Source: Escherichia coli (GTDB taxonomy: Bacteria; Pseudomonadota; Gammaproteobacteria; Enterobacterales; Enterobacteriaceae). Taken from it: a stretch of 64,000 bases of DNA. Made by a program: the position numbers and the translations under genes. Location: the NCBI RefSeq assembly GCF_045037415.1, contig NZ_CP173438.1; one strand, given 5' to 3'. Below the pieces are notes generated by a model that had not been told where the DNA came from, did not search any database, and was given only the letters and a program-made list of their open reading frames with translations. This document shows, in pieces, positions 21,642 to 58,004 of the stretch. Positions within the stretch are counted from its first letter, which is position 1. Each line of letters opens with the position of its first letter.

Positions 21642-21974
21642 TCAGTTTGCAGGCATTTTGGCGGGGGGAATGACGTTATTGGTTTCTTGCGCGTCGGCTT
21701 CGCTTTTTTCAACGCGCGAGCGCACTGAGCTGTCTTTGCGGAACACATCCCACGGTAGCAATATTGTGTCCAGTACTGCGGTAAATGGCATGTCGAGTAT
21801 CGCCAGCGATTTTGTGCCCCAGTTGGTTTCATCGTCGCCAATCATGGTTGCGCTGGCGCGGGTGCCAGGATACGTTCCTTCTTTCCCCCCGGTATGGGAC
21901 ATCACGCTGGAGCATCCTCCGAGTAATGTCATTCCGCTGCATATCATGAACGCTAACAACACATTTTTTATCAT
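21642..21974 (-). CDS. yidQ: putative outer-membrane lipoprotein YidQ
   Basis: ORF MIKNVLLAFMICSGMTLLGGCSS with lipobox; synteny beside ibpA. Confidence 0.8.
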   Translation of the reverse strand: MIKNVLLAFMICSGMTLLGGCSSVMSHTGGKEGTYPGTRASATMIGDDETNWGTKSLAILDMPFTAVLDTILLPWDVFRKDSSVRSRVEKSEADAQETNNVIPPAKMPAN

Positions 21975-44755: not shown

Positions 44756-45079
44756 TTACAGCAGCACCTCCAGCCCGTGTTTTTGCACAATGCTGAGCAG
44801 TTTTAATGAAATGCCATTGGGGCGTTTAGCGCCACTTTCCCATTTTTGTACAGTTGAAACGCTGGTATTGAGATAGTGAGCGAAGACGGGCTGACTCACT
44901 TTTAATTTTTCCCGCAGTGCTTTTATCTCAACAGGTTGTAAGTCTTGCACGCTGGTCAGGCAGGCTTTGTCAAAAGTACGCATCGTTTCGGCAGAAATAG
45001 CATCGACTCTGGACAATCCAGCCGCTGCGCTGTGAATAGCTTCAAATGCAGGACTTTTAAATTTAGTTTTTGCAGTCAT
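44756..45079 (-). CDS. HTH (XRE-like) antitoxin, HigA-like
   Basis: 107-aa ORF with a C-terminal HTH-like region (...VSQPVFAHYLNTSVSTVQKWESGAKRP...); its start overlaps the upstream toxin ORF by 17 nt. Confidence 0.65.
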   Translation of the reverse strand: MTAKTKFKSPAFEAIHSAAAGLSRVDAISAETMRTFDKACLTSVQDLQPVEIKALREKLKVSQPVFAHYLNTSVSTVQKWESGAKRPNGISLKLLSIVQKHGLEVLL

Positions 45080-45422
45080 AGCAGATCTCTGTCAGTTCTT
45101 TAGTGTTAATCATTGCTGTCAGTTGGGCTTTCGTCAGGAAGGCATAATGCTTTGCAAGTTCACGAAACCCAGCCAGTTCCTGACTATTAATGTTCGACAT
45201 ATCCTGTTTTGCATATAAAAACGTGTAAAACCAATTGCTTCCCCCTTTCGCCAGAATAATTGCACGCTCACGATTTCGGTGAAGGCGCTTTTTAAAAACG
45301 CCACCACCAAGTACATCAGCTTTACCTTGTTCCGTTTCTAAAATGGCCCGGCACAACTCTTCATCTGTTATTGCATGAGACCTGGCTTCCCTTGCAAACC
45401 ATTTGGTTTTAAACACGCGCAT
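45063..45422 (-). CDS. RelE/ParE-superfamily (HigB-like) toxin
   Basis: 119-aa basic ORF directly upstream of and overlapping the HTH antitoxin; toxin-first order is typical of HigB-HigA modules. Confidence 0.6.
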   Translation of the reverse strand: MRVFKTKWFAREARSHAITDEELCRAILETEQGKADVLGGGVFKKRLHRNRERAIILAKGGSNWFYTFLYAKQDMSNINSQELAGFRELAKHYAFLTKAQLTAMINTKELTEICYDCKN

Positions 45423-47395: not shown

Positions 47396-48214
47396 ATGAA
47401 ACTGACAACACATCATCTACGGGCGGGGGCCGCATTATTACTGGCAGGAGTTCTGCTGGCAGGTTGCGACCAGAGCAGTAGCGATGAAAAGCATATTAAA
47501 GTTGGCGTTATTAATGGCGCAGAACAAGATGTCGCGGAAGTCGCTAAAAAGGTAGCAAAAGAGAAATATGGCCTCGATGTTGAACTGGTAGGATTTAGCG
47601 GTTCGTTGCTACCGAACGATGCGACAAATCATGGCGAGCTTGATGCGAACGTCTTCCAGCATCGACCCTTTCTTGAACAAGATAATCAGGCGCATGGTTA
47701 TAAACTGGTAGCGGTGGGAAATACGTTTGTCTTCCCCATGGCGGGTTATTCCAAAAAAATCAAAACCGTGGCGCAAATAAAAGAAGGCGCGACAGTGGCG
47801 ATCCCCAACGACCCGACTAACCTTGGTCGTGCGCTTTTACTGCTGCAAAAAGAGAAGCTAATTACTCTGAAAGAGGGAAAAGGGTTATTACCTACCGCGT
47901 TGGATATAACCGATAATCCACGCCATTTGCAGATAATGGAGCTGGAAGGGGCACAGTTGCCACGTGTACTGGACGACCCGAAAGTGGATGTAGCGATTAT
48001 CAGCACCACTTACATCCAGCAAACAGGACTTTCTCCGGTTAACGACAGCGTATTTATTGAAGATAAAAATTCGCCGTATGTGAATATTCTGGTGGCACGG
48101 GAAGATAATAAGAATGCAGAAAACGTGAAGGAATTTCTGCAATCTTATCAATCACCCGAAGTCGCTAAAGCGGCAGAAACCATCTTTAACGGAGGCGCGG
48201 TGCCTGGCTGGTAA
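47396..48214 (+). CDS. nlpA: lipoprotein-28 (methionine-binding lipoprotein family)
   Basis: 272-aa ORF with lipobox LLAGC. Confidence 0.9.
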   Translation: MKLTTHHLRAGAALLLAGVLLAGCDQSSSDEKHIKVGVINGAEQDVAEVAKKVAKEKYGLDVELVGFSGSLLPNDATNHGELDANVFQHRPFLEQDNQAHGYKLVAVGNTFVFPMAGYSKKIKTVAQIKEGATVAIPNDPTNLGRALLLLQKEKLITLKEGKGLLPTALDITDNPRHLQIMELEGAQLPRVLDDPKVDVAIISTTYIQQTGLSPVNDSVFIEDKNSPYVNILVAREDNKNAENVKEFLQSYQSPEVAKAAETIFNGGAVPGW

Positions 48215-48217
48215 TTC

Positions 48218-49141
48218 TCACTCATGCCGCGCCGGACGATTTATTTTTCTGGCGCGGCGGCGGGAATCCATTGAAATCAAAATCACCGATGACAGAATCA
48301 GCAGCGTTCCCAGCCAGTCCGGCAATGTGAAGGTGATCCCCAGCAACAGCAAAGAGAGCAGTGCGCTACTTAATGGTTCTGCACAGCTTAAAATGCTGGC
48401 TTTTGGACCACCAATTAATTGTGCTCCTTTCAGGTACAGACTAAATGTCAGGGACGTACCAATGACCACCAAATAAAAAAACGCCAGAATCAAACTGCCG
48501 TTAACGACAAAGTTTGTCCCTTGTCTGGCATAAAAGGGCAGCAGGATCAGACCGCCAATGAGCATACTCCAGCCGACGACCGGTAACGTGCCATAGCGAG
48601 CAATCAGCGTTGAGGGATAGGTGGTATAGAATGCAGCAGCAAATGCCGAGGCAATGCCCCAGAATAACGCGGCAGGAGAGATCGATAATGACGTCGGATT
48701 ACCGTGTGTCACCAATAAAAAAGTCCCGATCAGCGATGTCAAAATAGCGCAAAAAACCAGGATGCCGGGGCGGGATTTACGCACCAGTGAGAACCAGGCG
48801 ACGATAATAGTCGGTGAGAGGAATTGCAGCACCGTTGCCGTGGCTGCGTTCGATTTTTCGATGGTTAGCAAAAAAGTGAGCTGTACGGTTAGCGCGCCAA
48901 CCACGGAAAAAATCAGTAGGCTAATGGCATCTTTGTGATTGTTAATAATAGAAAAGATTTTATCACCATGAACAAATGATAGCGTCAGCAGAATCAATCC
49001 GGCGAATATCAAACGCGTCATAGTCAAAAACTGCGACGACATCTGGCTTTGCTCCATGATGTATTGCGCGCAGACCCCTGAACTTCCCCACAACACGGCG
49101 GCAATCAGAACGTTCAGCATCCCCTTTCTGGTGGAACCCAT
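48218..49141 (-). CDS. yicL: EamA/DMT-family transporter YicL
   Basis: [30 protein letters not shown]...; start trimmed to the ATG at 49141. Confidence 0.85.
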
Positions 49142-49318
49142 TTTTCCCTCTGCATACTGTTTTGTCTTTTCATCAATATACGTTAAGGATACCACTACCG
49201 ATGACGGTGAGGGAGTAGAGTAATCAATCAGTTTTAGTGAATGGAGGAAATAATGACATATAACAATTATTCATATGGTGTTTAAAAAACCTCACTAAAA
49301 ACTCAATATGAAATTTAA

Positions 49319-49921
49319 TTATTTAATGTTCAATAACTCTATGGCTTTAGTATATTCATCAGGAATACCAATTATAAAACAAGGTGCGGTATCGGTAGGT
49401 AGATTTTCTTTGTTATCATCATCCAGAACAGAAATAGAAAACTGTCGTTCAGGTGTTGATGTTGTGGTTATTAAAATGGTTGGATTAGGAAGAGAAACAT
49501 ATGTTGTCTCATTTTTTAGTTTTATTCCTTTGATGTTTTCTTTGTTAATTTTATCAATCGTTTCAATAGAGAAAAAAGAATCATGCCCCATTCGCAGTTC
49601 AATTTTATTATCGTTTTCGAATAAATAAAGGGCATTATTGTTTTGAAACAGATTGAATATATTGTTAGCGCAAGTTTGAGTTGCTAGCCAGGATGCCGCT
49701 GGATGACTCAAATTAATATGTGTGCTAAAGACTTTGACGCGACTACTTCTGTTTTTCTCTTTACTTTCAATTAAATGCCTAGCGCTGTTGGCTGCTTTAC
49801 AAGTTCCATGCCCCACACGGCAAAAATAATCTCCTGAAAGGATACTTACAATCAGTATTACACCAATGACGACAGAAAAAATAGTTCCGATGAGTTTGAT
49901 GATGACAATCCTTGTGCAGTG
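49319..49921 (-). CDS. hypothetical AT-rich, Asn/Lys-rich protein with a possible N-terminal membrane anchor; start unclear (possible pseudogene)
   Basis: Track ORF starts at GTG 49816, but the frame stays open upstream through a hydrophobic segment IVIIKLIGTIFSVVIGVILIVSIL with no canonical start; an ATG at 49932-49934 is in another frame. Confidence 0.35.
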   Translation of the reverse strand, partial: HCTRIVIIKLIGTIFSVVIGVILIVSILSGDYFCRVGHGTCKAANSARHLIESKEKNRSSRVKVFSTHINLSHPAASWLATQTCANNIFNLFQNNNALYLFENDNKIELRMGHDSFFSIETIDKINKENIKGIKLKNETTYVSLPNPTILITTTSTPERQFSISVLDDDNKENLPTDTAPCFIIGIPDEYTKAIELLNIK

Positions 49922-50256
49922 TTATTTTCACCATGGATTATAATGTTATAGTGAAATTATTGCACCTGTAATTTTTCTTTGATTGTTTTAATCATCACAT
50001 TTACGCACTTCTTCATCTTTGTAGCAGGTAAAAGCCATATATGGATGGCTGGTGTCCGGTGCAGATAAAATGCAACTTATTCTTGATAGCTTGAAAAAAG
50101 AGAGGTTTTTTTGAGTGACGGTTGATGGTCGGTGGCAAGGAAGACGTTTTCGTACACTCGGCAAGAAAAATGAATCACTCTGTCATACTACCAGATACAT
50201 CAGCAGGGTCAGGTTGCTCAGAAATAAGCAGGATGGGGATCACTGAAGAGGCATTT

Positions 50257-50276
50257 TGGCGATCACAGGAGTCGAA
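50257..50276 (-). other. remnant of the selC tRNA 3' end (island attachment-site repeat)
   Basis: TGGCGATCACAGGAGTCGAA is the reverse complement of the selC 3' end TTCGACTCCTGTGATC[TTCC]GCCA with a 4-nt deletion; lies at the yicL-proximal edge of the island. Confidence 0.6.
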
Positions 50277-50411
50277 TATGAGTGTTAATGTTTTGATTTT
50301 AAATGATTAACCCGTGTTGGATAAATGAGTAACCCCCATAAGAACCCCCAAATGACTTTGCGTAAGGGAATGAGGCTAAAATACACAATCGAATCAATTA
50401 TTAGAGCTTTC

Positions 50412-51254
50412 TTATGAAGGTAACACTCCCGGATAGTGTTTCGCAATAATCTCATTCAGCCTGTCAACCAGTTCTGGTTTCCTGAACGTGATGTGTGCGG
50501 AGCCCTTCTTAAAGTATCTGATGCTGAACATCTCATCTTCGTAGTCCTCTTTACCTTGAACAGACTGGGTGTGGTCATCCAGATGAATGGTGATGTTTTC
50601 CCGGTTGTCGGGGATCGGTTTGCCGCTGAACAGGTGCAGCATTCTTTCCAGATCGGCAAGTCGATCGGCCTGTTGCCCGGTGATAAGATGAAACCCCCAT
50701 CTGTCCCACCTTACCAGGTTGTTGACGATAATTTTACTGCCAAACTTGCAGGGGCAATTGGTTTTGTAATTCCAGCTCAGTCCCCTGAAGACGTTGATCA
50801 CCCCCCGCTCAAACACTTCATCTTTGTTCTGGTGCAGTTGTTCAAATGTGCTCAGAATGTTCGCTTCACTGATTTCCGGAAAATTATCGTATTCCAGTGA
50901 TCGGTACCATGTATCACGGGCCTGTGCATCCATTAAGGAAAGCATCCCTGAACGTTGCATCAGGTCACGCCAGATTTCGCGGTCAAGATTCCGGGTAATG
51001 GCTTTCATTGCCGTTTCAGGTTTCTCCATGAGCCAGCATCCGCAGCGAAAATCCTGTTTCATGGCCCAGTCCGGGGCAGTTTTACCTCCGATGCTTTCCG
51101 TCAGCACCGAGATTTCAGCCAGTTGCCGGATAAGTGTGTCGATTTGCAGCAGTGTATTCTTTCGTACAGCCAGAATGTGGCAGATTGAGGTGGAACAGAT
51201 AACGTCCGTATGCCCGTTGACCACTTCCGGACGGGAGACTGTGATTTTAGACAT
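50412..51254 (-). CDS. DUF4942-family protein (terminal gene of CP4-like elements)
   Basis: 280-aa ORF; follows the CbtA/YeeW/DUF957 block as in CP4-type cryptic prophages (recalled). Confidence 0.65.
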   Translation of the reverse strand: MSKITVSRPEVVNGHTDVICSTSICHILAVRKNTLLQIDTLIRQLAEISVLTESIGGKTAPDWAMKQDFRCGCWLMEKPETAMKAITRNLDREIWRDLMQRSGMLSLMDAQARDTWYRSLEYDNFPEISEANILSTFEQLHQNKDEVFERGVINVFRGLSWNYKTNCPCKFGSKIIVNNLVRWDRWGFHLITGQQADRLADLERMLHLFSGKPIPDNRENITIHLDDHTQSVQGKEDYEDEMFSIRYFKKGSAHITFRKPELVDRLNEIIAKHYPGVLPS

Positions 51255-51350
51255 AATCGATATTCCTTTTTGCAGATAAATGAAAACGCCAGCCCTGTTC
51301 AGGCTGGTGTCAGTGGAATGAAGTCTGGTGAGTGAGATGATGAGTAAGAC

Positions 51351-51548
51351 TCACCGGTTCTGTTGCAGAAGCTGTAGTTGGCGCAGGGTACGGATATCTT
51401 CCCTGGCCTGTTCAATGCAGGGCAACAGTGCTGCTGAATCCGTTCTATCCTCATCGTTGTCGAAGATAATCCCGGATTCACAGTCGATATTGTCCTGCAG
51501 CCACGCAATCAGAATATCCAGCGCCGTTTCTGTCGTTAATGATTTCAT
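51351..51548 (-). CDS. DUF957-family small protein
   Basis: ORF MKSLTTETALDILIAWLQDNIDCESGIIFDNDEDRTD...; position in the CP4-like gene order. Confidence 0.55.
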   Translation of the reverse strand: MKSLTTETALDILIAWLQDNIDCESGIIFDNDEDRTDSAALLPCIEQAREDIRTLRQLQLLQQNR

Positions 51549-51565
51549 GTTGTGAATTTCCCTGA

Positions 51566-52054
51566 TTACCAGTCGAAAGTGGGCAGACCCGGCAGACATT
51601 CAGCGCAGGCATCCAGATGAATGAGACTGACGCCATAACGGCGAATGAGCGTGACGATCAGACGACGAAACGTTTTTGACAGGCCCAGGCGTTTAAGTCG
51701 CAGAACCGGGTACGACCACGCATCGGTACGTAACAGATATCCGCTACCGGTAAAATGAATCCATTCTGATTCGCCGAAGTCATTCGTCTGATGTGACAGC
51801 GAGTACAGCCAGGCGTTGTCCTTTGCCGTGATATGCGCGGTACTGCAGCGTATGCCGGTAAGGGCCGCAGATGGTGGCGTGCGCTCTGCTGATGTCCGGT
51901 CAGATTCATCAACAACACGAAGGGAGTAACCGTTATCGCAGACCACGTTAATCAGTTCAGCGAGAGTAACACCATCGACGTCAACGACAATGCGCCCCAT
52001 GTTCAGTGCCTGCACGTTAATGCTGTCGGCTTCCAGCGTCAGGGCCAGTTTCAT
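51566..52054 (-). CDS. YeeW-like protein (DUF5983)
   Basis: 162-aa ORF immediately downstream of and overlapping the CbtA-like toxin. Confidence 0.6.
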   Translation of the reverse strand: MKLALTLEADSINVQALNMGRIVVDVDGVTLAELINVVCDNGYSLRVVDESDRTSAERTPPSAALTGIRCSTAHITAKDNAWLYSLSHQTNDFGESEWIHFTGSGYLLRTDAWSYPVLRLKRLGLSKTFRRLIVTLIRRYGVSLIHLDACAECLPGLPTFDW

Positions 52055-52428
52055 TGTTTCGCCCCCGGATGTTTACCCAGGGTAATGTTATTTACCGTTC
52101 TGTAATTGTCGCGGGCCATCAGGCCGGTTGCCCGGCGGGCCCGGAGGATATCAATACTGTTTATTAACTGAGAACGGGTACAGGCGCTGAATCCCGGCTG
52201 GTCGGTACGTACCAGTGCGTATTTTTCAACGAGAAAGTTCACCGCATCGCACAGTGAAATGCCTGCCTCAATATGCTGCTCAATCACACGTTCATCAGCG
52301 AACGGTGTGTCATTCAGTGTGAGGCCGTAATGCTGGTCCAACAGTCGGGTGAGCAGTGTCTGCCAGATGGTGACGGGAGACGGGCAGCGCGATGCCTCCC
52401 GTACGTGTGTGTCAGGTAATGTTTTCAT
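52051..52428 (-). CDS. CbtA/YeeV-family toxin (type IV TA, cytoskeleton-targeting)
   Basis: ORF MKTLPDTHVREASRCPSPVTIWQTLLTRLLDQHYGLTLNDTPFADERVIEQHIEAGISLCDAV... recognised as the YeeV/YkfI/YpjF family. Confidence 0.8.
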   Translation of the reverse strand: MKTLPDTHVREASRCPSPVTIWQTLLTRLLDQHYGLTLNDTPFADERVIEQHIEAGISLCDAVNFLVEKYALVRTDQPGFSACTRSQLINSIDILRARRATGLMARDNYRTVNNITLGKHPGAKQ

Positions 52429-52474
52429 CTTAAGTTCTCTGTAACTGGTAGTGCTAAAGGTGAGATATTCGGGG

Positions 52475-52849
52475 TTATGAGGTGGTTGCGGGTGCCAGTG
52501 TCGGATAAACAGCCATATAAACGTAACCACAGCTGCCGAGGGTGTCGGCTTCGCAGGTCAGCCCTCTGGCATACAGCGTGACGGTATGCTGATGGCGGGG
52601 ATTCAGTTCACCGCTGGTGAGCATGAGTTCCAGTTGTTTCATCAGCAGCGGAAAGGCCTGGTCCAGATGATACGCATCCGCGTCGCTAAACTGCCCCCTG
52701 ATACCGGCGCGGTCGGCAAGGTAATGCAACTGATTGCCCTCCTGCACCAGACGTGCCCCGAAACAGGGCGTCACGGTGCAGGGGAGCCCCCACCAGGGGC
52801 GGTCGTTGTTGTTGTCGGGATGCGTTGTCCCGGGGTGTGTGTCTGACAC
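52475..52849 (-). CDS. CbeA/YeeU-family antitoxin
   Basis: ORF MSDTHPGTTHPDNNNDRPWWGLPCTVTPCFGARLVQEGNQLHYLADRAGIRG... recognised as the YeeU/YafW/YfjZ family; directly upstream of the toxin. Confidence 0.8.
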   Translation of the reverse strand: MSDTHPGTTHPDNNNDRPWWGLPCTVTPCFGARLVQEGNQLHYLADRAGIRGQFSDADAYHLDQAFPLLMKQLELMLTSGELNPRHQHTVTLYARGLTCEADTLGSCGYVYMAVYPTLAPATTS

Positions 52850-52928
52850 GATAAAATCCTCACAGAAAATCGGTTAAGAATGCTCCGATGGTGGCGATAA
52901 TTCGGCTCATCAGAATGCCCTTTCTGAT

Positions 52929-53150
52929 TCAGTTCAGGGTAACGCTCATCAGACGGACATACGGACCAAAACTGTCCTTACGGCGTTCAGCAAACACGGC
53001 CAGCACACCGGGAATATCCTGCACTTCACGGCCGGTATACGTATCCGTGCTACCGTGCCAGCGGTATTTACCGGTACAGAACGGAAAAAGACGGGATGCA
53101 GGATGCTGTTGGTGAATACGCATGGCTTCACCACGGGTGATGATTTTCAT
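52929..53150 (-). CDS. DUF987-family protein (YeeT-like)
   Basis: 73-aa ORF MKIITRGEAMRIHQQHPASRLFPFCTGKYRWHG... Confidence 0.7.
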   Translation of the reverse strand: MKIITRGEAMRIHQQHPASRLFPFCTGKYRWHGSTDTYTGREVQDIPGVLAVFAERRKDSFGPYVRLMSVTLN

Positions 53151-53212
53151 AATGGGATACCTCTGAAGACAGAAGATAAAAGTGAAAACAGGTGTGATGT
53201 GGTTGTGACGGG

Positions 53213-53689
53213 TTAAAGCAGACCGTGTTCGGCAAAGGAGAATACCTGGTTGCCACCGACTATCAGATGGTCCGGCACCCGGATATCCACCAGGGCCAGC
53301 GCCTGTACCAGACGTTCAGTGATAAGCCGGTCTGCCTTACTGGGGGTGACTTCACCGGACGGGTGATTGTGCGCCAGCACCACGGCAGCGGCATTGTGGT
53401 ACAGGGCACGTTTAATCACCTCCCGGGGATGGACTTCTGTGCGGTTGATGGTGCCTGTGAAGAGGGTTTCACCCGCAATCAGCTGATTCTGGTTGTTCAG
53501 ATACAGCACCCGGAACTCTTCCCGCTCCAGTCCTGCCATGTTCAGAATCAGCCATTCCCGTGCCGCATGCGTGGAGGTGAAGGCCACACCGGGTTCATGA
53601 AGATGGCGGTCCAGGGTTTTCAGGGCCCGCAGAATGAGACTGCGCTCTCTGGTTGTCATCTCTCCGGGCAGAAAGGAAAGTTGTTGCAT
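53213..53689 (-). CDS. RadC-like JAB-domain protein (YeeS/YkfG/YfjY family)
   Basis: JAMM-like motif HNHPSG; ORF MQQLSFLPGEM... Confidence 0.8.
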   Translation of the reverse strand: MQQLSFLPGEMTTRERSLILRALKTLDRHLHEPGVAFTSTHAAREWLILNMAGLEREEFRVLYLNNQNQLIAGETLFTGTINRTEVHPREVIKRALYHNAAAVVLAHNHPSGEVTPSKADRLITERLVQALALVDIRVPDHLIVGGNQVFSFAEHGLL

Positions 53690-53703
53690 TGTGCTTCTCC
53701 GGC

Positions 53704-54183
53704 TCAGTCGATGATGCGCATAATGGCGCTGCATTCAGGATGCTGCAGGGCGTAATCCCGCAGCCGGTAATAATGGACCGTCATGGCATAACACTCCGTA
53801 CGACAGGCATGATGGCTGTACGTCATCAGACAGGCGGCAATACCGGCGGCTTCCGGGCTCATTTCAGCGCGGTTACCGTTCATGGCATTGAACAGTACCC
53901 ATGTTTCGTCATCATCGTCATCCGGTTCGGGTGCCATAAATGCCCCGCCGTTGTTCAGGGTATACAGATTCCAGATACCACCGCAGTAGTCTTCACACAG
54001 ACGGTCCATCCAGCCGAAGACACGGGGCTCCAGGGTCACCCACTGTGGAATGAGGCCAAAATGCTGCGGCCAAAAGCTGATGCGCTGTTCATCAGGGACG
54101 AGGCTGGCAACCAACTGAGGCGGATTATTCTCTGGTGTTGTAGCTGAATAAATTGTGGGGGTATTCTGAGAAACGCTTTTCAT
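53704..54183 (-). CDS. antirestriction protein (YfjX/YafX-like)
   Basis: 159-aa acidic ORF with a DDDDDE stretch; position between the DUF932 and RadC-like genes. Confidence 0.65.
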   Translation of the reverse strand: MKSVSQNTPTIYSATTPENNPPQLVASLVPDEQRISFWPQHFGLIPQWVTLEPRVFGWMDRLCEDYCGGIWNLYTLNNGGAFMAPEPDDDDDETWVLFNAMNGNRAEMSPEAAGIAACLMTYSHHACRTECYAMTVHYYRLRDYALQHPECSAIMRIID

Positions 54184-54264
54184 GAGATAACTCCTTAAAT
54201 AACAAATAAAAGTGTGTTTTTCAGGAACGAAAGCTGAATGATTCCCTCACTCAGGGAAACGGCA

Positions 54265-55083
54265 TCAGCGCAGGCTCTCCAGCATCGTTTCTGCCATCAC
54301 CCACAATGCGCGGTTGAGTTTAATATCGGTGTCGATGCTGTGAATGGCCCGGGTATGGATACGTTTTCCTTTTGCACTGCGACCGGAAATCCCGCCTTTC
54401 AGCATATTCTCCTGGATGGTCTGATATGCGCTCCACAGGTCCTTACCGTAATCCTCCCGGCGTCGCGGCGTCAGAATGTCGGCGGTGGTGACGGGCTGAT
54501 GTTCGTCACCATAACGGTAAGTCAGTGCCGCCTGTGCCAGCGCCTGGCGTGCCGGTGGCGGCAGGACCAGCGACTGCATGGCATCACGCTTCTCCTCTAT
54601 CCGGTCAAACACGCCCACCACTTCGTAAGCCCCTTCAATGACTCTGTCCACCACATTTCCCCGGTGCGGAACACGCACTTCCCCCAGAGACTGGCCACAG
54701 ACGCACCCGTTCTGGCAGACGAACCTGAAGTAACCCGGCAGCATCTGATAGCTGGAGGTACCGTCATGAGAGTTGAGCAGAATAATTTCAGGGACATGTT
54801 CTCCGTTTATCTCTCCGGCCCGCCGCAGACGCAGCATGTGTTTGGTGTATTCCCGGCGGCTCTGGTCGCGCACACGGGGCTGGCAGGCGAAGAACGGCTG
54901 AAAGCCTTCCCGCTGCAGATTTTCCAGGACGGTAATGGTGGGAATGTACGCATACCGTTCACTGCGGGAGGTGTGCCGGTCTTCTCCAAAAATACTCGGG
55001 ACGTGGTACATCAGTTCTTCGCGTGTCAGTGGGCGCTCCCGACGGATCTGATTTACATGACCAAAACGACTGGCTAATTGCAT
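54265..55083 (-). CDS. DUF932-family protein (YfjQ/YafZ-like)
   Basis: 272-aa ORF; family assignment from recalled similarity and CP4-like gene order. Confidence 0.6.
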   Translation of the reverse strand: MQLASRFGHVNQIRRERPLTREELMYHVPSIFGEDRHTSRSERYAYIPTITVLENLQREGFQPFFACQPRVRDQSRREYTKHMLRLRRAGEINGEHVPEIILLNSHDGTSSYQMLPGYFRFVCQNGCVCGQSLGEVRVPHRGNVVDRVIEGAYEVVGVFDRIEEKRDAMQSLVLPPPARQALAQAALTYRYGDEHQPVTTADILTPRRREDYGKDLWSAYQTIQENMLKGGISGRSAKGKRIHTRAIHSIDTDIKLNRALWVMAETMLESLR

Positions 55084-55172
55084 ACTTTGCTCCTTATGAA
55101 TGAATTAGCGGTATAAACGAAAAAGCCGCGTCTCCCGGAGAAGACGCGGCCTGATGGATGAAATGAAGACGT

Positions 55173-55406
55173 TTATTGCCTGAGAATTCCCTCACTGGCG
55201 AGATACGAATTTAGCTGTTTTCCGGCATCAGGTTCAAAATTCCAGCACCGCCAGCGTAGCTGCCCTTCGGCATTGCGGATAACCAGCCGGAAATGCGTTC
55301 CCTGGTCATCTTCAATAAGCACATTGCGGTAAGCTGTTGTGACGGCAACCGCCTGTTCGCGTGAGAAAGGGCCTTCGGGCAATAAAACAGGGTGGCAGTC
55401 CGACAT
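55173..55406 (-). CDS. DUF905-family small protein (YkfF-like)
   Basis: 77-aa [56 protein letters not shown]... Confidence 0.55.
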
Positions 55407-55411
55407 ACCGA

Positions 55412-56089
55412 CTATTTTCCGATAAATTCAACGCTGGCGCCGGTGGCATTACCGTCAGCACCAACCGTGACGGTCACTTTGTCGTACGCACGGTCTTCAG
55501 GATTGAATACTTCAAACTCAACCTTATTGCCTTTTACTTCGTAAGAGCCAAAATCAGCGGTTTCTGTTGTTTCCTCGTCATATTCCCGGGCGTATGCCTG
55601 CCGGGCAGCCTGCAGGACGGAATCTTTATTAATAGTGGTCGTCTGTTTCGGGGAAAAACCGGCAAGTGATGTGACAAATTTCGGACAGACCTTCAGCATA
55701 TCACCGCGGGTGAATTCCATTCGTACACCAAATGCCTGTAAAACGGACACATCACGCTCTGCTATGGAGTGAACGGCTTTTTTGACCATTTCCGGCGCCT
55801 GTCCGATTTCCACCTCAACAGCCCTGAATCCCGTCTGCTGATTACACATTTGTGATGTGGGGATCAGGTTACCGTTAATACTGATACGGCTGCCCAGGAG
55901 CGTCTGTACACCATTCGGGCATCCCTGCATCAGGCCAGTAATACCAATCGTGCCATTTTTCAGCATTACCAGCGCCTGACCATCTTCCGTCATGGTCTGA
56001 CACCAGCCGTTTTTGACAGCCCAGTTGCCGGCGGAGGCGGAGAATGATGCCACAGTGAACAGCAGGGGAAAAAGAGCTCTGGTATTCAT
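55412..56089 (-). CDS. predicted secreted protein with signal peptide
   Basis: ORF starting [20 protein letters not shown] (signal-peptide-like), then a Cys-containing mature domain; start trimmed from the track. Confidence 0.5.
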
Positions 56090-56236
56090 GACTGACCTCT
56101 GAAATGAACGTACGGTGTTATTGATAATGATGGAAGGTATGCAGTGACTGTTCAGGGAATGACGTAGCCGTATATTTAGTTTTCTGTTCAACATATTGTC
56201 TCCATACCTGTCGGGACGGCTTTGGCAGGCCGGCGA

Positions 56237-56917
56237 TCACAGGTTAAAGGTGTTGATAAGTTTATGGATGAAAGAGAAATGTGGCAGGGCGGAGATAAAA
56301 CGCTCTTCAGCGACCAGACTGTGGATGTGGCCTCTCCGTTCAAACCGTTCTGATGTCAGGCTGACTGATTTGATATCTGCCAGAGGAAAGACCTGCAGTT
56401 TTCCCTTCTGTAACGCGATCAGATACCAGCTACCGCTGTAATAAATGAGCCGGCAGGGCTCCAGTGACGGATACCATCGCTCAGTCATCAGAGAGATGTG
56501 GATACACTGTCTTATTGCCAGGATGAGTTGCGAGAAACACTCGGGGAACGTTGCAGTGATATCCGGCGCCGGTAGCCAGATAAGGCAGGGAGAGGGCTCC
56601 TGGTTGTCGGTAAGACAGGTTATCAGTCGTCCGTTCCGGAGCGGAAGTATCCGTGCGATCCCGGTATTCTGTATAAAAGAAAGCATTTCAGGGATCGCAC
56701 CTGGGCTGCTCTGTCGTCTGAGACTGTACCGGCCATTTCTGTACTCTAAGTCCAGGTGAACCAGACGCTGATGAAAATCGCGCTGTAAGGTACGTTCTGT
56801 AACACCAAATTCATCTGACAGTGTTTTTAGTGACAGAGATTCTCCGGCCATCAGTCGGCTGATAATGAGTGATAAGCGAACCGCCAGGCGATCATGCCGG
56901 GAACGATTATCAGACAT
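56237..56917 (-). CDS. HTH plus WYL-domain transcriptional regulator (YfjR-like)
   Basis: N-terminal HTH-like region (LSLKTLSDEFGVTERTLQRD) and a C-terminal region resembling WYL-domain regulators. Confidence 0.6.
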   Translation of the reverse strand: MSDNRSRHDRLAVRLSLIISRLMAGESLSLKTLSDEFGVTERTLQRDFHQRLVHLDLEYRNGRYSLRRQSSPGAIPEMLSFIQNTGIARILPLRNGRLITCLTDNQEPSPCLIWLPAPDITATFPECFSQLILAIRQCIHISLMTERWYPSLEPCRLIYYSGSWYLIALQKGKLQVFPLADIKSVSLTSERFERRGHIHSLVAEERFISALPHFSFIHKLINTFNL

Positions 56918-57119
56918 AGATGTGCACTCCGTAAGAAAACATCTTTTATTTCATGATGTTATTATGCATCATGATGTTGAAAGGATGTGTCGCATCCGAA
57001 TAATCAGAAATAAAATGCAGCAGAAAAAATATTCCTTTAATTATCTGATTTTTAAGCAGGGTTTCATAAAAAGAAGAATGCTTGTTAATCCAGCGACACA
57101 TCCTGTCGGCGTGAGTGTG

Positions 57120-58004
57120 TCAGAACAGACGATCCCACAGTGTGACCAGCAAGTGGATAATGCGGTCCCGGGCCTTACGCAGAAGCTGTAACATCCAGGC
57201 CGGAAAGCTGAATTGGGCAACGGCAGCGTCAAAGCTTTTCCCGATGGCGTCACCAAAAGTTTGTTGTGCGTGTTTCCGGGCCTGTTCAGAGCGGTTTTCC
57301 CCCCGGATATGTGAATAAACTGCGCTGGTTGCCTGTGGTGGCAGTGCGTGGATCATCAGCGACACCAGTGCCGGAAGATTCCAGCCGACAGGTGCGGCAA
57401 CGGAGAGTACCGGAAATGATGAAGGGAACAGGGTTGCCACCCGGGCTGTTACTGTTGCCAGTGAGAGTTCCTGCTGACGGGACGGGCATTTTTCTGTGTC
57501 GTTCCATTCTTCAGCAGGAAACACGCGATCGGCATGGCTGAGAACAAACAGAAAACGCGAGGGATCTGCACCTTCATTCAGTAAAAACTGATGCATGGCA
57601 ATATCGGCAGCATACGCACGTTCATCAGCCCGCAGGATCCAGATAATCAGATCCAGTTCCGGCAGTAACTGACGATAAAGCTCCCGGTATTCCTGATCAT
57701 GCTGCGGTGTCTCACCAATGCCGGGCATATCGACCAGCGTCATTCTGCGTTCACCGAGCTGCAGGGTAAGACGATGAGCCTGGCGGGTGCAGCCGTTCAG
57801 GGGATGCGTGGCGCAGATACGGGACTGAAAAATGGCATTACACAGACTGCTTTTGCCGGTGCCGGATTTACCCATAATGCCAATTACGGGCTCGTAATGA
57901 ATAACACCGTGGAGATGTTCAAGGATTTTCTGGCGAATTTCTTCAGGAAGAAACGTCAGATATGATTTTACTTGTGCAGAGAGGGAAGAATGGCTGAATG
58001 ACAT
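57120..58004 (-). CDS. GTPase of the YfjP/YeeP/YkfA family
   Basis: P-loop GIMGKSGTGKSS and DxxG (DMPG) motifs; first gene of the minus-strand CP4-like block. Confidence 0.8.
   Translation of the reverse strand: MSFSHSSLSAQVKSYLTFLPEEIRQKILEHLHGVIHYEPVIGIMGKSGTGKSSLCNAIFQSRICATHPLNGCTRQAHRLTLQLGERRMTLVDMPGIGETPQHDQEYRELYRQLLPELDLIIWILRADERAYAADIAMHQFLLNEGADPSRFLFVLSHADRVFPAEEWNDTEKCPSRQQELSLATVTARVATLFPSSFPVLSVAAPVGWNLPALVSLMIHALPPQATSAVYSHIRGENRSEQARKHAQQTFGDAIGKSFDAAVAQFSFPAWMLQLLRKARDRIIHLLVTLWDRLF

Follow-up and report, generated by a model that had tools for sequence, protein, structure and literature searches.

When PAI I of strain 536 was first described, 16-nt direct repeats were reportedly recognised at selC, the gene for tRNA-Sec. 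This island, PAI I536 of UPEC 536, is the best-studied of the selC islands and excises in a manner that depends on its own integrase (PMC7545054). An integrase, together with repeats identical to those of UPEC PAI-1, is likewise possessed by the tia island of ETEC H10407 (ROD-20), which lies at selC and measures ~46 kb (PMC7545054). The repeats that flank genomic islands typically span 16-130 bp (PMC7545054). At selC, the island GIselC17584/1 of STEC 17584/1 ends in a 24-bp direct repeat of the selC 3' end (PMC6174562), and the tRNA-Sec island of strain 28Eco12 has a 39-bp direct repeat (PMC6963479).

Here we describe the corresponding locus in a 64-kb stretch of Escherichia coli DNA (hereafter, the window), in which a preliminary description had read the 20-mer at positions 50257-50276 as the reverse complement of the last 24 nt of tRNA-Sec minus four bases. 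This reading was confirmed by comparison with the 95-nt selC gene, which is the same in K-12 MG1655 and in strain IPCEC48 (both genes were read), and the selC sequence on which that description relied proved correct against both. Read directly from the window, the 20-mer is TGGCGATCACAGGAGTCGAA, and the end of selC, as written on the same strand from the K-12 and IPCEC48 genes, is TGGCGGAAGATCACAGGAGTCGAACC. An exact selC 16-mer (GATCACAGGAGTCGAA) occupies 50261-50276 and, after a 4-nt gap relative to selC, TGGC follows at 50257-50260; the four bases lost from the gap are GGAA on the window strand and TTCC in the tRNA sense. Placed on the selC fold, the 16-mer (TTCGACTCCTGTGATC in the tRNA sense) begins at the first base of the T-loop and comprises the T-loop (TTCGACT), the 3' strand of the T-stem (CCTGT) and the start of the acceptor 3' strand (GATC), and the missing TTCC would complete the 8-bp acceptor stem. 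ARAGORN reports no tRNA gene anywhere in the window, and the scar is therefore a fragment, not a gene: a functional tRNA-Sec has a full cloverleaf and an 8-bp acceptor stem, and the window contains the last 24 nt minus 4 only.

We consider it very probable that this 20-mer is the far-end attachment-site scar, an attR-type direct repeat, of a genomic-island locus at selC. The far-end copy of the 16-nt direct repeat (50261-50276, minus strand) is an exact match that is also found at the far end of PAI I536 and inside the intact selC of IPCEC48, where the second copy lies at 21951-21966 of extract L002. Abutting it, with TTCC gone, is the GCCA tail of the old selC 3' end, consisting of the discriminator base and CCA (50257-50260, minus strand), and direct reading of 536, SK1144 and XDL reveals the same gap in each. 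The match to selC is longer than first described and continues for a further 10 nt into what was the downstream flank of the old tRNA gene (50247-50256, minus strand; AAATGCCTCT in the tRNA sense), since blastn and direct reading show these bases to be identical to those directly after selC in K-12. When the scar is aligned with the K-12 selC end and its flank, 30 of 34 positions match.

The shortness of the match is the one point that speaks for a chance resemblance, or for an unrelated tRNA-like fragment. The preliminary description had judged a 16-nt match plus GCCA unlikely to arise by chance, and the numbers bear this out: by our own arithmetic an exact 16-mer is expected ~3e-5 times on both strands of 64 kb, and shuffled versions of the window yield a mean of 0.04 matches at <=2 mismatches, against a single occurrence of the 16-mer in the real window even when <=2 mismatches are allowed. 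Coincidence would also leave unexplained the extension of the match into the native selC flank, the position of the scar at the island edge in comparative alignments, and the partner site with its integrase at the opposite end of the island. These results refute a chance origin, to which we give a vanishingly small probability.

The edge of the island was placed by comparison with SK1144, an ST131-type strain. To the left of the scar, SK1144 and the window are identical over 2857 of 2857 nt; to the right, the two sequences part at the 19th base of the 20-mer. Because the identity stops there, the boundary between the chromosome and the variable island falls inside the 20-mer, which gives an exact position to what had been described as the yicL-proximal edge of a CP4-like block. 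Between the repeats, the contents of SK1144, 536 and XDL differ from those here, and K-12 has none of this DNA.

On the chromosomal side, the first conserved gene outside the island locus is yicL (48218-49141, minus strand), assigned by K-12 homology and annotation. When the junction is aligned with the yicL-setC-selC region of K-12, as the preliminary description had proposed, the homology that extends from nlpA and yicL breaks at window position 49170, 29 nt upstream of the yicL start, and returns for the 30-nt scar only. In place of K-12 yicT-setC, and outside the repeat, the window has a 1076-bp segment without a K-12 counterpart (49171-50246, ~36% G+C), within which lies a 165-aa ORF (RefSeq WP_000509815.1; 49319-49816, minus strand) that has no NCBIfam match. 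SK1144 has this segment unaltered, and the 536 version is 94% identical; in 536 and among ST131-type strains it occurs irrespective of island content. A tblastn search found setC neither in the window nor anywhere in the nlpA-to-dut stretch of IPCEC48, and in XDL the same island end lies beside an intact setC. Since the replacing segment lies outside the repeat and XDL keeps its setC, the loss of setC was a separate event, not due to insertion of the island. That setC is missing from its expected place, as first described, is nevertheless correct.

Two further features were observed elsewhere in the window. The interval between yicN and nepI, only ~210 bp long in K-12, here holds an insertion at 44756-45422 (minus strand) that encodes a RelE/ParE-type toxin of 119 aa and an HTH antitoxin of 107 aa. 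In addition, a low-G+C patch (39-43%) at 34519-35379, between ilvN and uhpA, carries a DUF6708 pseudogene with an internal stop and may be another small foreign insertion.

The window itself contains neither selC nor an integrase, and near-identical complete genomes were used as a stand-in for the sequence past its end. Several complete E. coli genomes match positions 47500-53500 at 100%. IPCEC48 (NZ_AP026794.1) differs from the window by 2 substitutions and one 1-nt indel across the 36.5 kb from 27500 to 64000 (99.992% identity); an apparent divergence near 62.08 kb in an ungapped comparison was dismissed as an artefact of that single indel. Strain 219 is 100.0% identical to the window over 56000-64000. 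Gene annotation is that of RefSeq for IPCEC48, transferred by coordinates (window position equals position in extract L001 plus 27499).

The preliminary description had expected an intact selC and an integrase beyond the window end, and extension past 64 kb in these genomes located both. IPCEC48 has an intact 95-nt tRNA-Sec gene on the minus strand (record positions 89943-90037), in the same orientation as the scar, with its 3' end ~30.9 kb past the end of the window. The island ends in a gene for a P4-type tyrosine recombinase of 396 aa (88454-89644), 299 bp from tRNA-Sec, and in strain 219 the same integrase protein adjoins tRNA-Sec, with tia nearby. In IPCEC48 a distance of 44,655 bp separates the two 16-mers, which bracket the tia-bearing island. 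The integrase is full length and possesses the Arm-DNA-bind_3, Phage_int_M and Phage_integrase domains; its match to the NCBIfam model PRK09692 falls under the curated cut-off. The island also encodes a 77-aa member of the AlpA family of CP4-57, which has a weak excisionase match too. Judged by these sequences, the recombination module of the island looks complete.

Next to the scar lies the island-side arm of the attachment site (50277-50411), which is near-identical in 536 and XDL; the SK1144 arm is homologous to it but has diverged. The arm in the window contains two ACCCCC(A) motifs, starting at 50332 and 50344 and thus 12 bp apart. The selC-side arm of IPCEC48 has a similar tandem pair (L002 21813 and 21825), such that both arms carry ACCCCC(A/T) at a 12-bp spacing, and these pairs are candidate arm-type binding sites for the arm-binding domain of the integrase.

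Inward of this arm, the CP4-like terminal block (50412-58004, minus strand; IPCEC48 RefSeq annotation) contains genes for DUF4942, DUF957 and DUF5983 proteins, the CbtA toxin and YeeU antitoxin, a DUF987 protein, a JAB/RadC-like protein, an antirestriction protein, DUF932 and DUF905 proteins, a hypothetical protein, an HTH regulator and a YeeP-like GTPase. The same block terminates PAI I536 and the XDL island. From there to the end of the window (58005-64000), comparison with IPCEC48 and 219 identifies a hypothetical gene, an AT-rich gap, an inovirus Gp2-like gene, a restriction endonuclease gene, and IS fragments with an EAST1 ORF. The annotated cargo between the repeats of IPCEC48 comprises the CP4-like block, the restriction endonuclease, the IS fragments with the EAST1 ORF, an H-NS-like gene, a type I restriction-modification system, rhuM, tia and a phosphoethanolamine transferase gene, with tia lying outside the window, in the IPCEC48 part of the island. 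In base composition, the CP4-like block (45-55% G+C) is near the backbone; only the segment outside the repeat, at 36%, and patches of 33-41% between 58 and 61 kb deviate.

Several features of this cargo were noted in passing. The most AT-rich part of the island, at 58000-61000 (33-41% G+C), has a strong positive GC skew of ~0.2, and some 1.5 kb of DNA between the hypothetical gene and the inovirus Gp2-like gene (roughly 59320-60818) is without an annotated gene. The EAST1-type ORF is full length at 38 aa (MPSTQYIRRPTSSYASCIWCATVCASCHGRTTKPSLAT; 62907-63023, plus strand) and lies out of frame within a transposase fragment; at this position RefSeq has only a 21-codon EAST1-family CDS. Between the type I restriction-modification module and tia, an integrase fragment sits beside an IS1 copy (IPCEC48 L002 15785-15967), which suggests that the island was built from at least two integrase-bearing modules. 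A search of the whole island with the selC 3' 26-mer, allowing <=6 edits, found no att copies besides those at the two ends, and tandem accretion is therefore not delimitable by att copies.

In the process that best accounts for this arrangement, an island with a P4-type tyrosine integrase and its own selC 3' end would have recombined with selC. Strand exchange in the T-loop is usual for integrases of this type, and here too the crossover most likely took place in the T-loop. The copy brought by the island would have rebuilt the tRNA gene at the near end, beside the integrase, and the original selC 3' end, together with its downstream flank, would have been displaced to the far end. There the displaced end would later have lost TTCC, so that no more than 16 nt still match selC without interruption.

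The consequences for excision can be modelled. Integrase-mediated recombination between the 16-nt repeats, probably aided by the AlpA-type protein, would release the island as a circle, and we infer that the island here is still able to excise in this way. The gap would, however, be left in the chromosome: under a T-loop crossover the product would be a selC without TTCC, reading ...TTCGACTCCTGTGATCGCCA, in which half of the acceptor 3' strand is gone. In the simulated product the acceptor stem falls from 8 bp to 4+2 pairs, with the GCCA tail paired, and the fold energy is -39.8 kcal/mol as compared with -46.9 kcal/mol for selC. A TTCC-less selC would, on these folds, probably be non-functional. 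ARAGORN still calls the simulated product a 92-nt tRNA-SeC, and we have consequently dropped gene-finder output as evidence that the tRNA is destroyed.

The spread of the scar was determined in a collection of 5426 complete E. coli genomes, using 72 nt of flank plus scar as the query. Flank and gapped scar were found in 1103 genomes, about a fifth of the collection, nearly all at >=99% identity and every one of them (1103 of 1103) with the gap; carriers include ATCC 25922, LF82 and isolates of ST131 and ST1193. Of these, 791 have the flank and selC no more than ~1.4 kb apart, the arrangement of the rhuM islet type, and the remaining carriers must hold larger islands, like the island here. Because the 1103 genomes share the scar but differ in island content, the scar is an old feature of this chromosomal lineage and has been retained while the contents were exchanged. 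It thus marks the edge of the locus, and not necessarily the event that delivered the present cargo. The reading of this locus as an integration at selC is supported, each of its testable predictions having held, with two amendments: setC was lost in an event of its own, and the scar predates the cargo it now borders.

The gapped scar is not confined to one chromosomal context. In about two dozen genomes, including XDL, HS4 and SMS-3-5, it is found with the end of the CP4-like block on a K-12-like flank comprising a rhuM fragment, setC and yicL. We observed this form in XDL at extract L008 20001-20084, and likewise in ~23 other genomes; the bases after GCCA differ slightly between the two flank contexts (ATTTGCCTCTTCAT versus AAATGCCTCTTCAG). 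As a separate observation, K-12 DNA just downstream of selC (L003 6399-6454, overlapping the pseudogene yicT) has a weak match to the rhuM gene of the island (80% over 56 nt), and RefSeq labels the equivalent stretch in 702/18 and XDL as partial rhuM. In K-12 itself, selC therefore appears to be accompanied by a decayed rhuM islet.

Because the gapped scar occurs on two flanks, a minor alternative has to be weighed, in which the gapped end may travel with the island. The attP of the island would then bring an imperfect selC 3' end (without TTCC, rather than the full TTCCGCCA) together with ~15 nt of mimic flank, the crossover would fall downstream of the tRNA gene, and the scar would move with the CP4-like block. 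Consistent with this, the B2-type flank and the K-12-like flank (with its rhuM fragment and setC) share the gapped scar followed by GCCAAwwTGCCTCTTCA, a near-identical arm and the CP4-like block. A shared ancestral scar followed by replacement of the flank would explain both contexts equally well, though, and SK1144 has the same scar beside a different, diverged island arm. Furthermore, the repeat begins at the first base of the T-loop, as fits the usual T-loop crossover, and the sequence immediately after selC at the near end differs from one island type to another (ACTAACCTCTCC in 536 versus ATTAACATCTTC in IPCEC48), as expected if the island supplies the near side. On this balance we consider an island-borne gapped end improbable, and we favour the displaced chromosomal copy of the selC 3' end as the source of the scar.

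A further question is whether the displaced copy still takes part in recombination. Two synthetic queries were used to look for the outcome of excision at the flank seen here: a presumptive empty site, in which the flank is joined to intact selC, was found as one piece in none of the 5426 complete genomes, and neither was an excised junction, in which the flank is fused to a selC without TTCC. With no flank-selC junction, intact or truncated, in 5426 genomes, excision at this B2-type flank is undocumented in the collection.

The one natural product of this kind was found at the sister junction. In strain 702/18 the only annotated tRNA-Sec is a 91-nt gene without TTCC (NZ_CP074701.1 3119895-3119985; L007 6014-6104), and no other genome of the 5426 has such a TTCC-less selC. 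In 702/18 the flank belongs to the K-12-like type (rhuM fragment, setC and yicL). For 6033 nt, ending with the final base of the 16-mer, 702/18 and XDL are collinear and 99.967% identical; past that base 702/18 runs into the selC body and XDL into the island. On these alignments, 702/18 looks like a case of precise repeat-to-repeat island loss in which the gap was passed to selC, matching the prediction of the excision model.

These data bear on the possibility that the scar is a true but ancient remnant that no longer recombines, the gap and mosaic turnover having uncoupled it from the present integrase and left the island fixed. The finding that 0 of 5426 genomes have this flank fused to selC is in line with such a fixed state, as is the retention of something between scar and selC in 1103 of 1103 carriers, 791 of which have just the 1.2-kb rhuM islet and no integrase. 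The scar is constant, moreover, among 536, IPCEC48 and SK1144, whose attL-side sequences vary, and the borders between modules have no internal att copy, even though the integrase fragment by IS1 suggests accretion. Set against this are the full-length integrase with all of its domains, the presence of an AlpA-type gene, the precise repeat-to-repeat loss in 702/18 at a junction with the same gap, and PAI I536, which has the same 16-nt repeat and gap and a 94% identical integrase and reportedly excises in an integrase-dependent manner (PMC7545054). We therefore regard a dead scar as possible but rather unlikely, and a repeat that can still serve in excision as the better reading.

If the repeat can indeed recombine, the gap would have a predictable cost. 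Since the far repeat lacks TTCC in all 1103 genomes and on the second flank, any repeat-to-repeat excision would hand the gap to the only selC of the cell and so cripple the acceptor stem. Precise loss of such islands should thus cost the cell its tRNA-Sec, an outcome that 702/18, the one natural complete genome with a TTCC-less selC, appears to exemplify. It is conceivable that the conserved gap goes beyond neutral decay and acts as a built-in penalty on island loss and so helps to keep selC islands in place, in which case loss of the island would cost selenoproteins and, hence, formate dehydrogenases. That a conserved 4-nt gap makes island loss cost tRNA-Sec is the only reading here that is even mildly new, and we assign a low probability to the gap having a selected function of this kind.

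Set beside the other described selC loci, the junction is a close match to one and a partial match to several. The SK1144 rhuM islet shares the scar, the gap and 2857 nt of flank, its repeat being CGACTCCTGTGATC[TTCC]GCCAAAATGCCTCT, but only 1.2 kb separates the scar from selC, with one rhuM gene and no integrase, and its arm is homologous yet diverged. The repeats of GIselC17584/1 and 28Eco12 are ungapped, at 24 and 39 bp, whereas the far copy here has 16 uninterrupted nt and lacks TTCC. The 28Eco12 repeat, TTCGACTCCTGTGATCTTCCGCCAATTAACATCTTCTGA, is the near-end sequence of IPCEC48. Because the far repeat is 16 nt long while the near end matches a repeat that is 39 bp elsewhere, the scar and the integrase-proximal module may have separate origins. 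The tia island of H10407 resembles this one in its published description, by its selC site, by tia and by its size (~46 kb as compared with 44.7 kb), and it is characterised by leoA as well; the annotation of the IPCEC48 island has no gene of the leoA type, and as leoA is not seen, we did not adopt an identity with the H10407 island on the strength of this description.

The closest relative is PAI I536, whose coordinates in UPEC 536 were taken from a review (PMC7545054). Its far end, ...CTCATA-TTCGACTCCTGTGATC-GCCAAAATGCCTCTTCAGTGATCCCC..., agrees with the window at every base, with the identical 16-mer, the identical loss of TTCC and an identical chromosomal flank over the 50 nt shown. The terminal gene order is also the same, running through YeeU, CbtA, DUF5983, DUF957 and DUF4942 to the scar, the hypothetical gene, yicL and nlpA, and the PAI I536 junction region is 94.3% identical to window positions 48000-52436. 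The comparison with known selC islands that the preliminary description had called for thus matches the junction to the PAI I536 far end, with selC-adjacent integrases that are 94% identical between 536 and IPCEC48. The two islands differ in cargo: PAI I536 is 77 kb long and encodes alpha-haemolysin and F17-like and CS12-like pili (PMC7545054), and the island here is 44.7 kb long and carries tia, a phosphoethanolamine transferase gene, a type I restriction-modification system and EAST1. Being the same 16-base repeat as that of PAI I536, the scar is ordinary rather than new. Its value lies in placing, to the base, one border of a virulence-associated island of 44.7 kb (tia, EAST1, toxin-antitoxin, restriction-modification) and in tying that border to the best-studied selC island, which aids annotation and island typing and brings no new biology. 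By its sequence, the feature is one already known, the far-end repeat of selC islands of the PAI I536 type.
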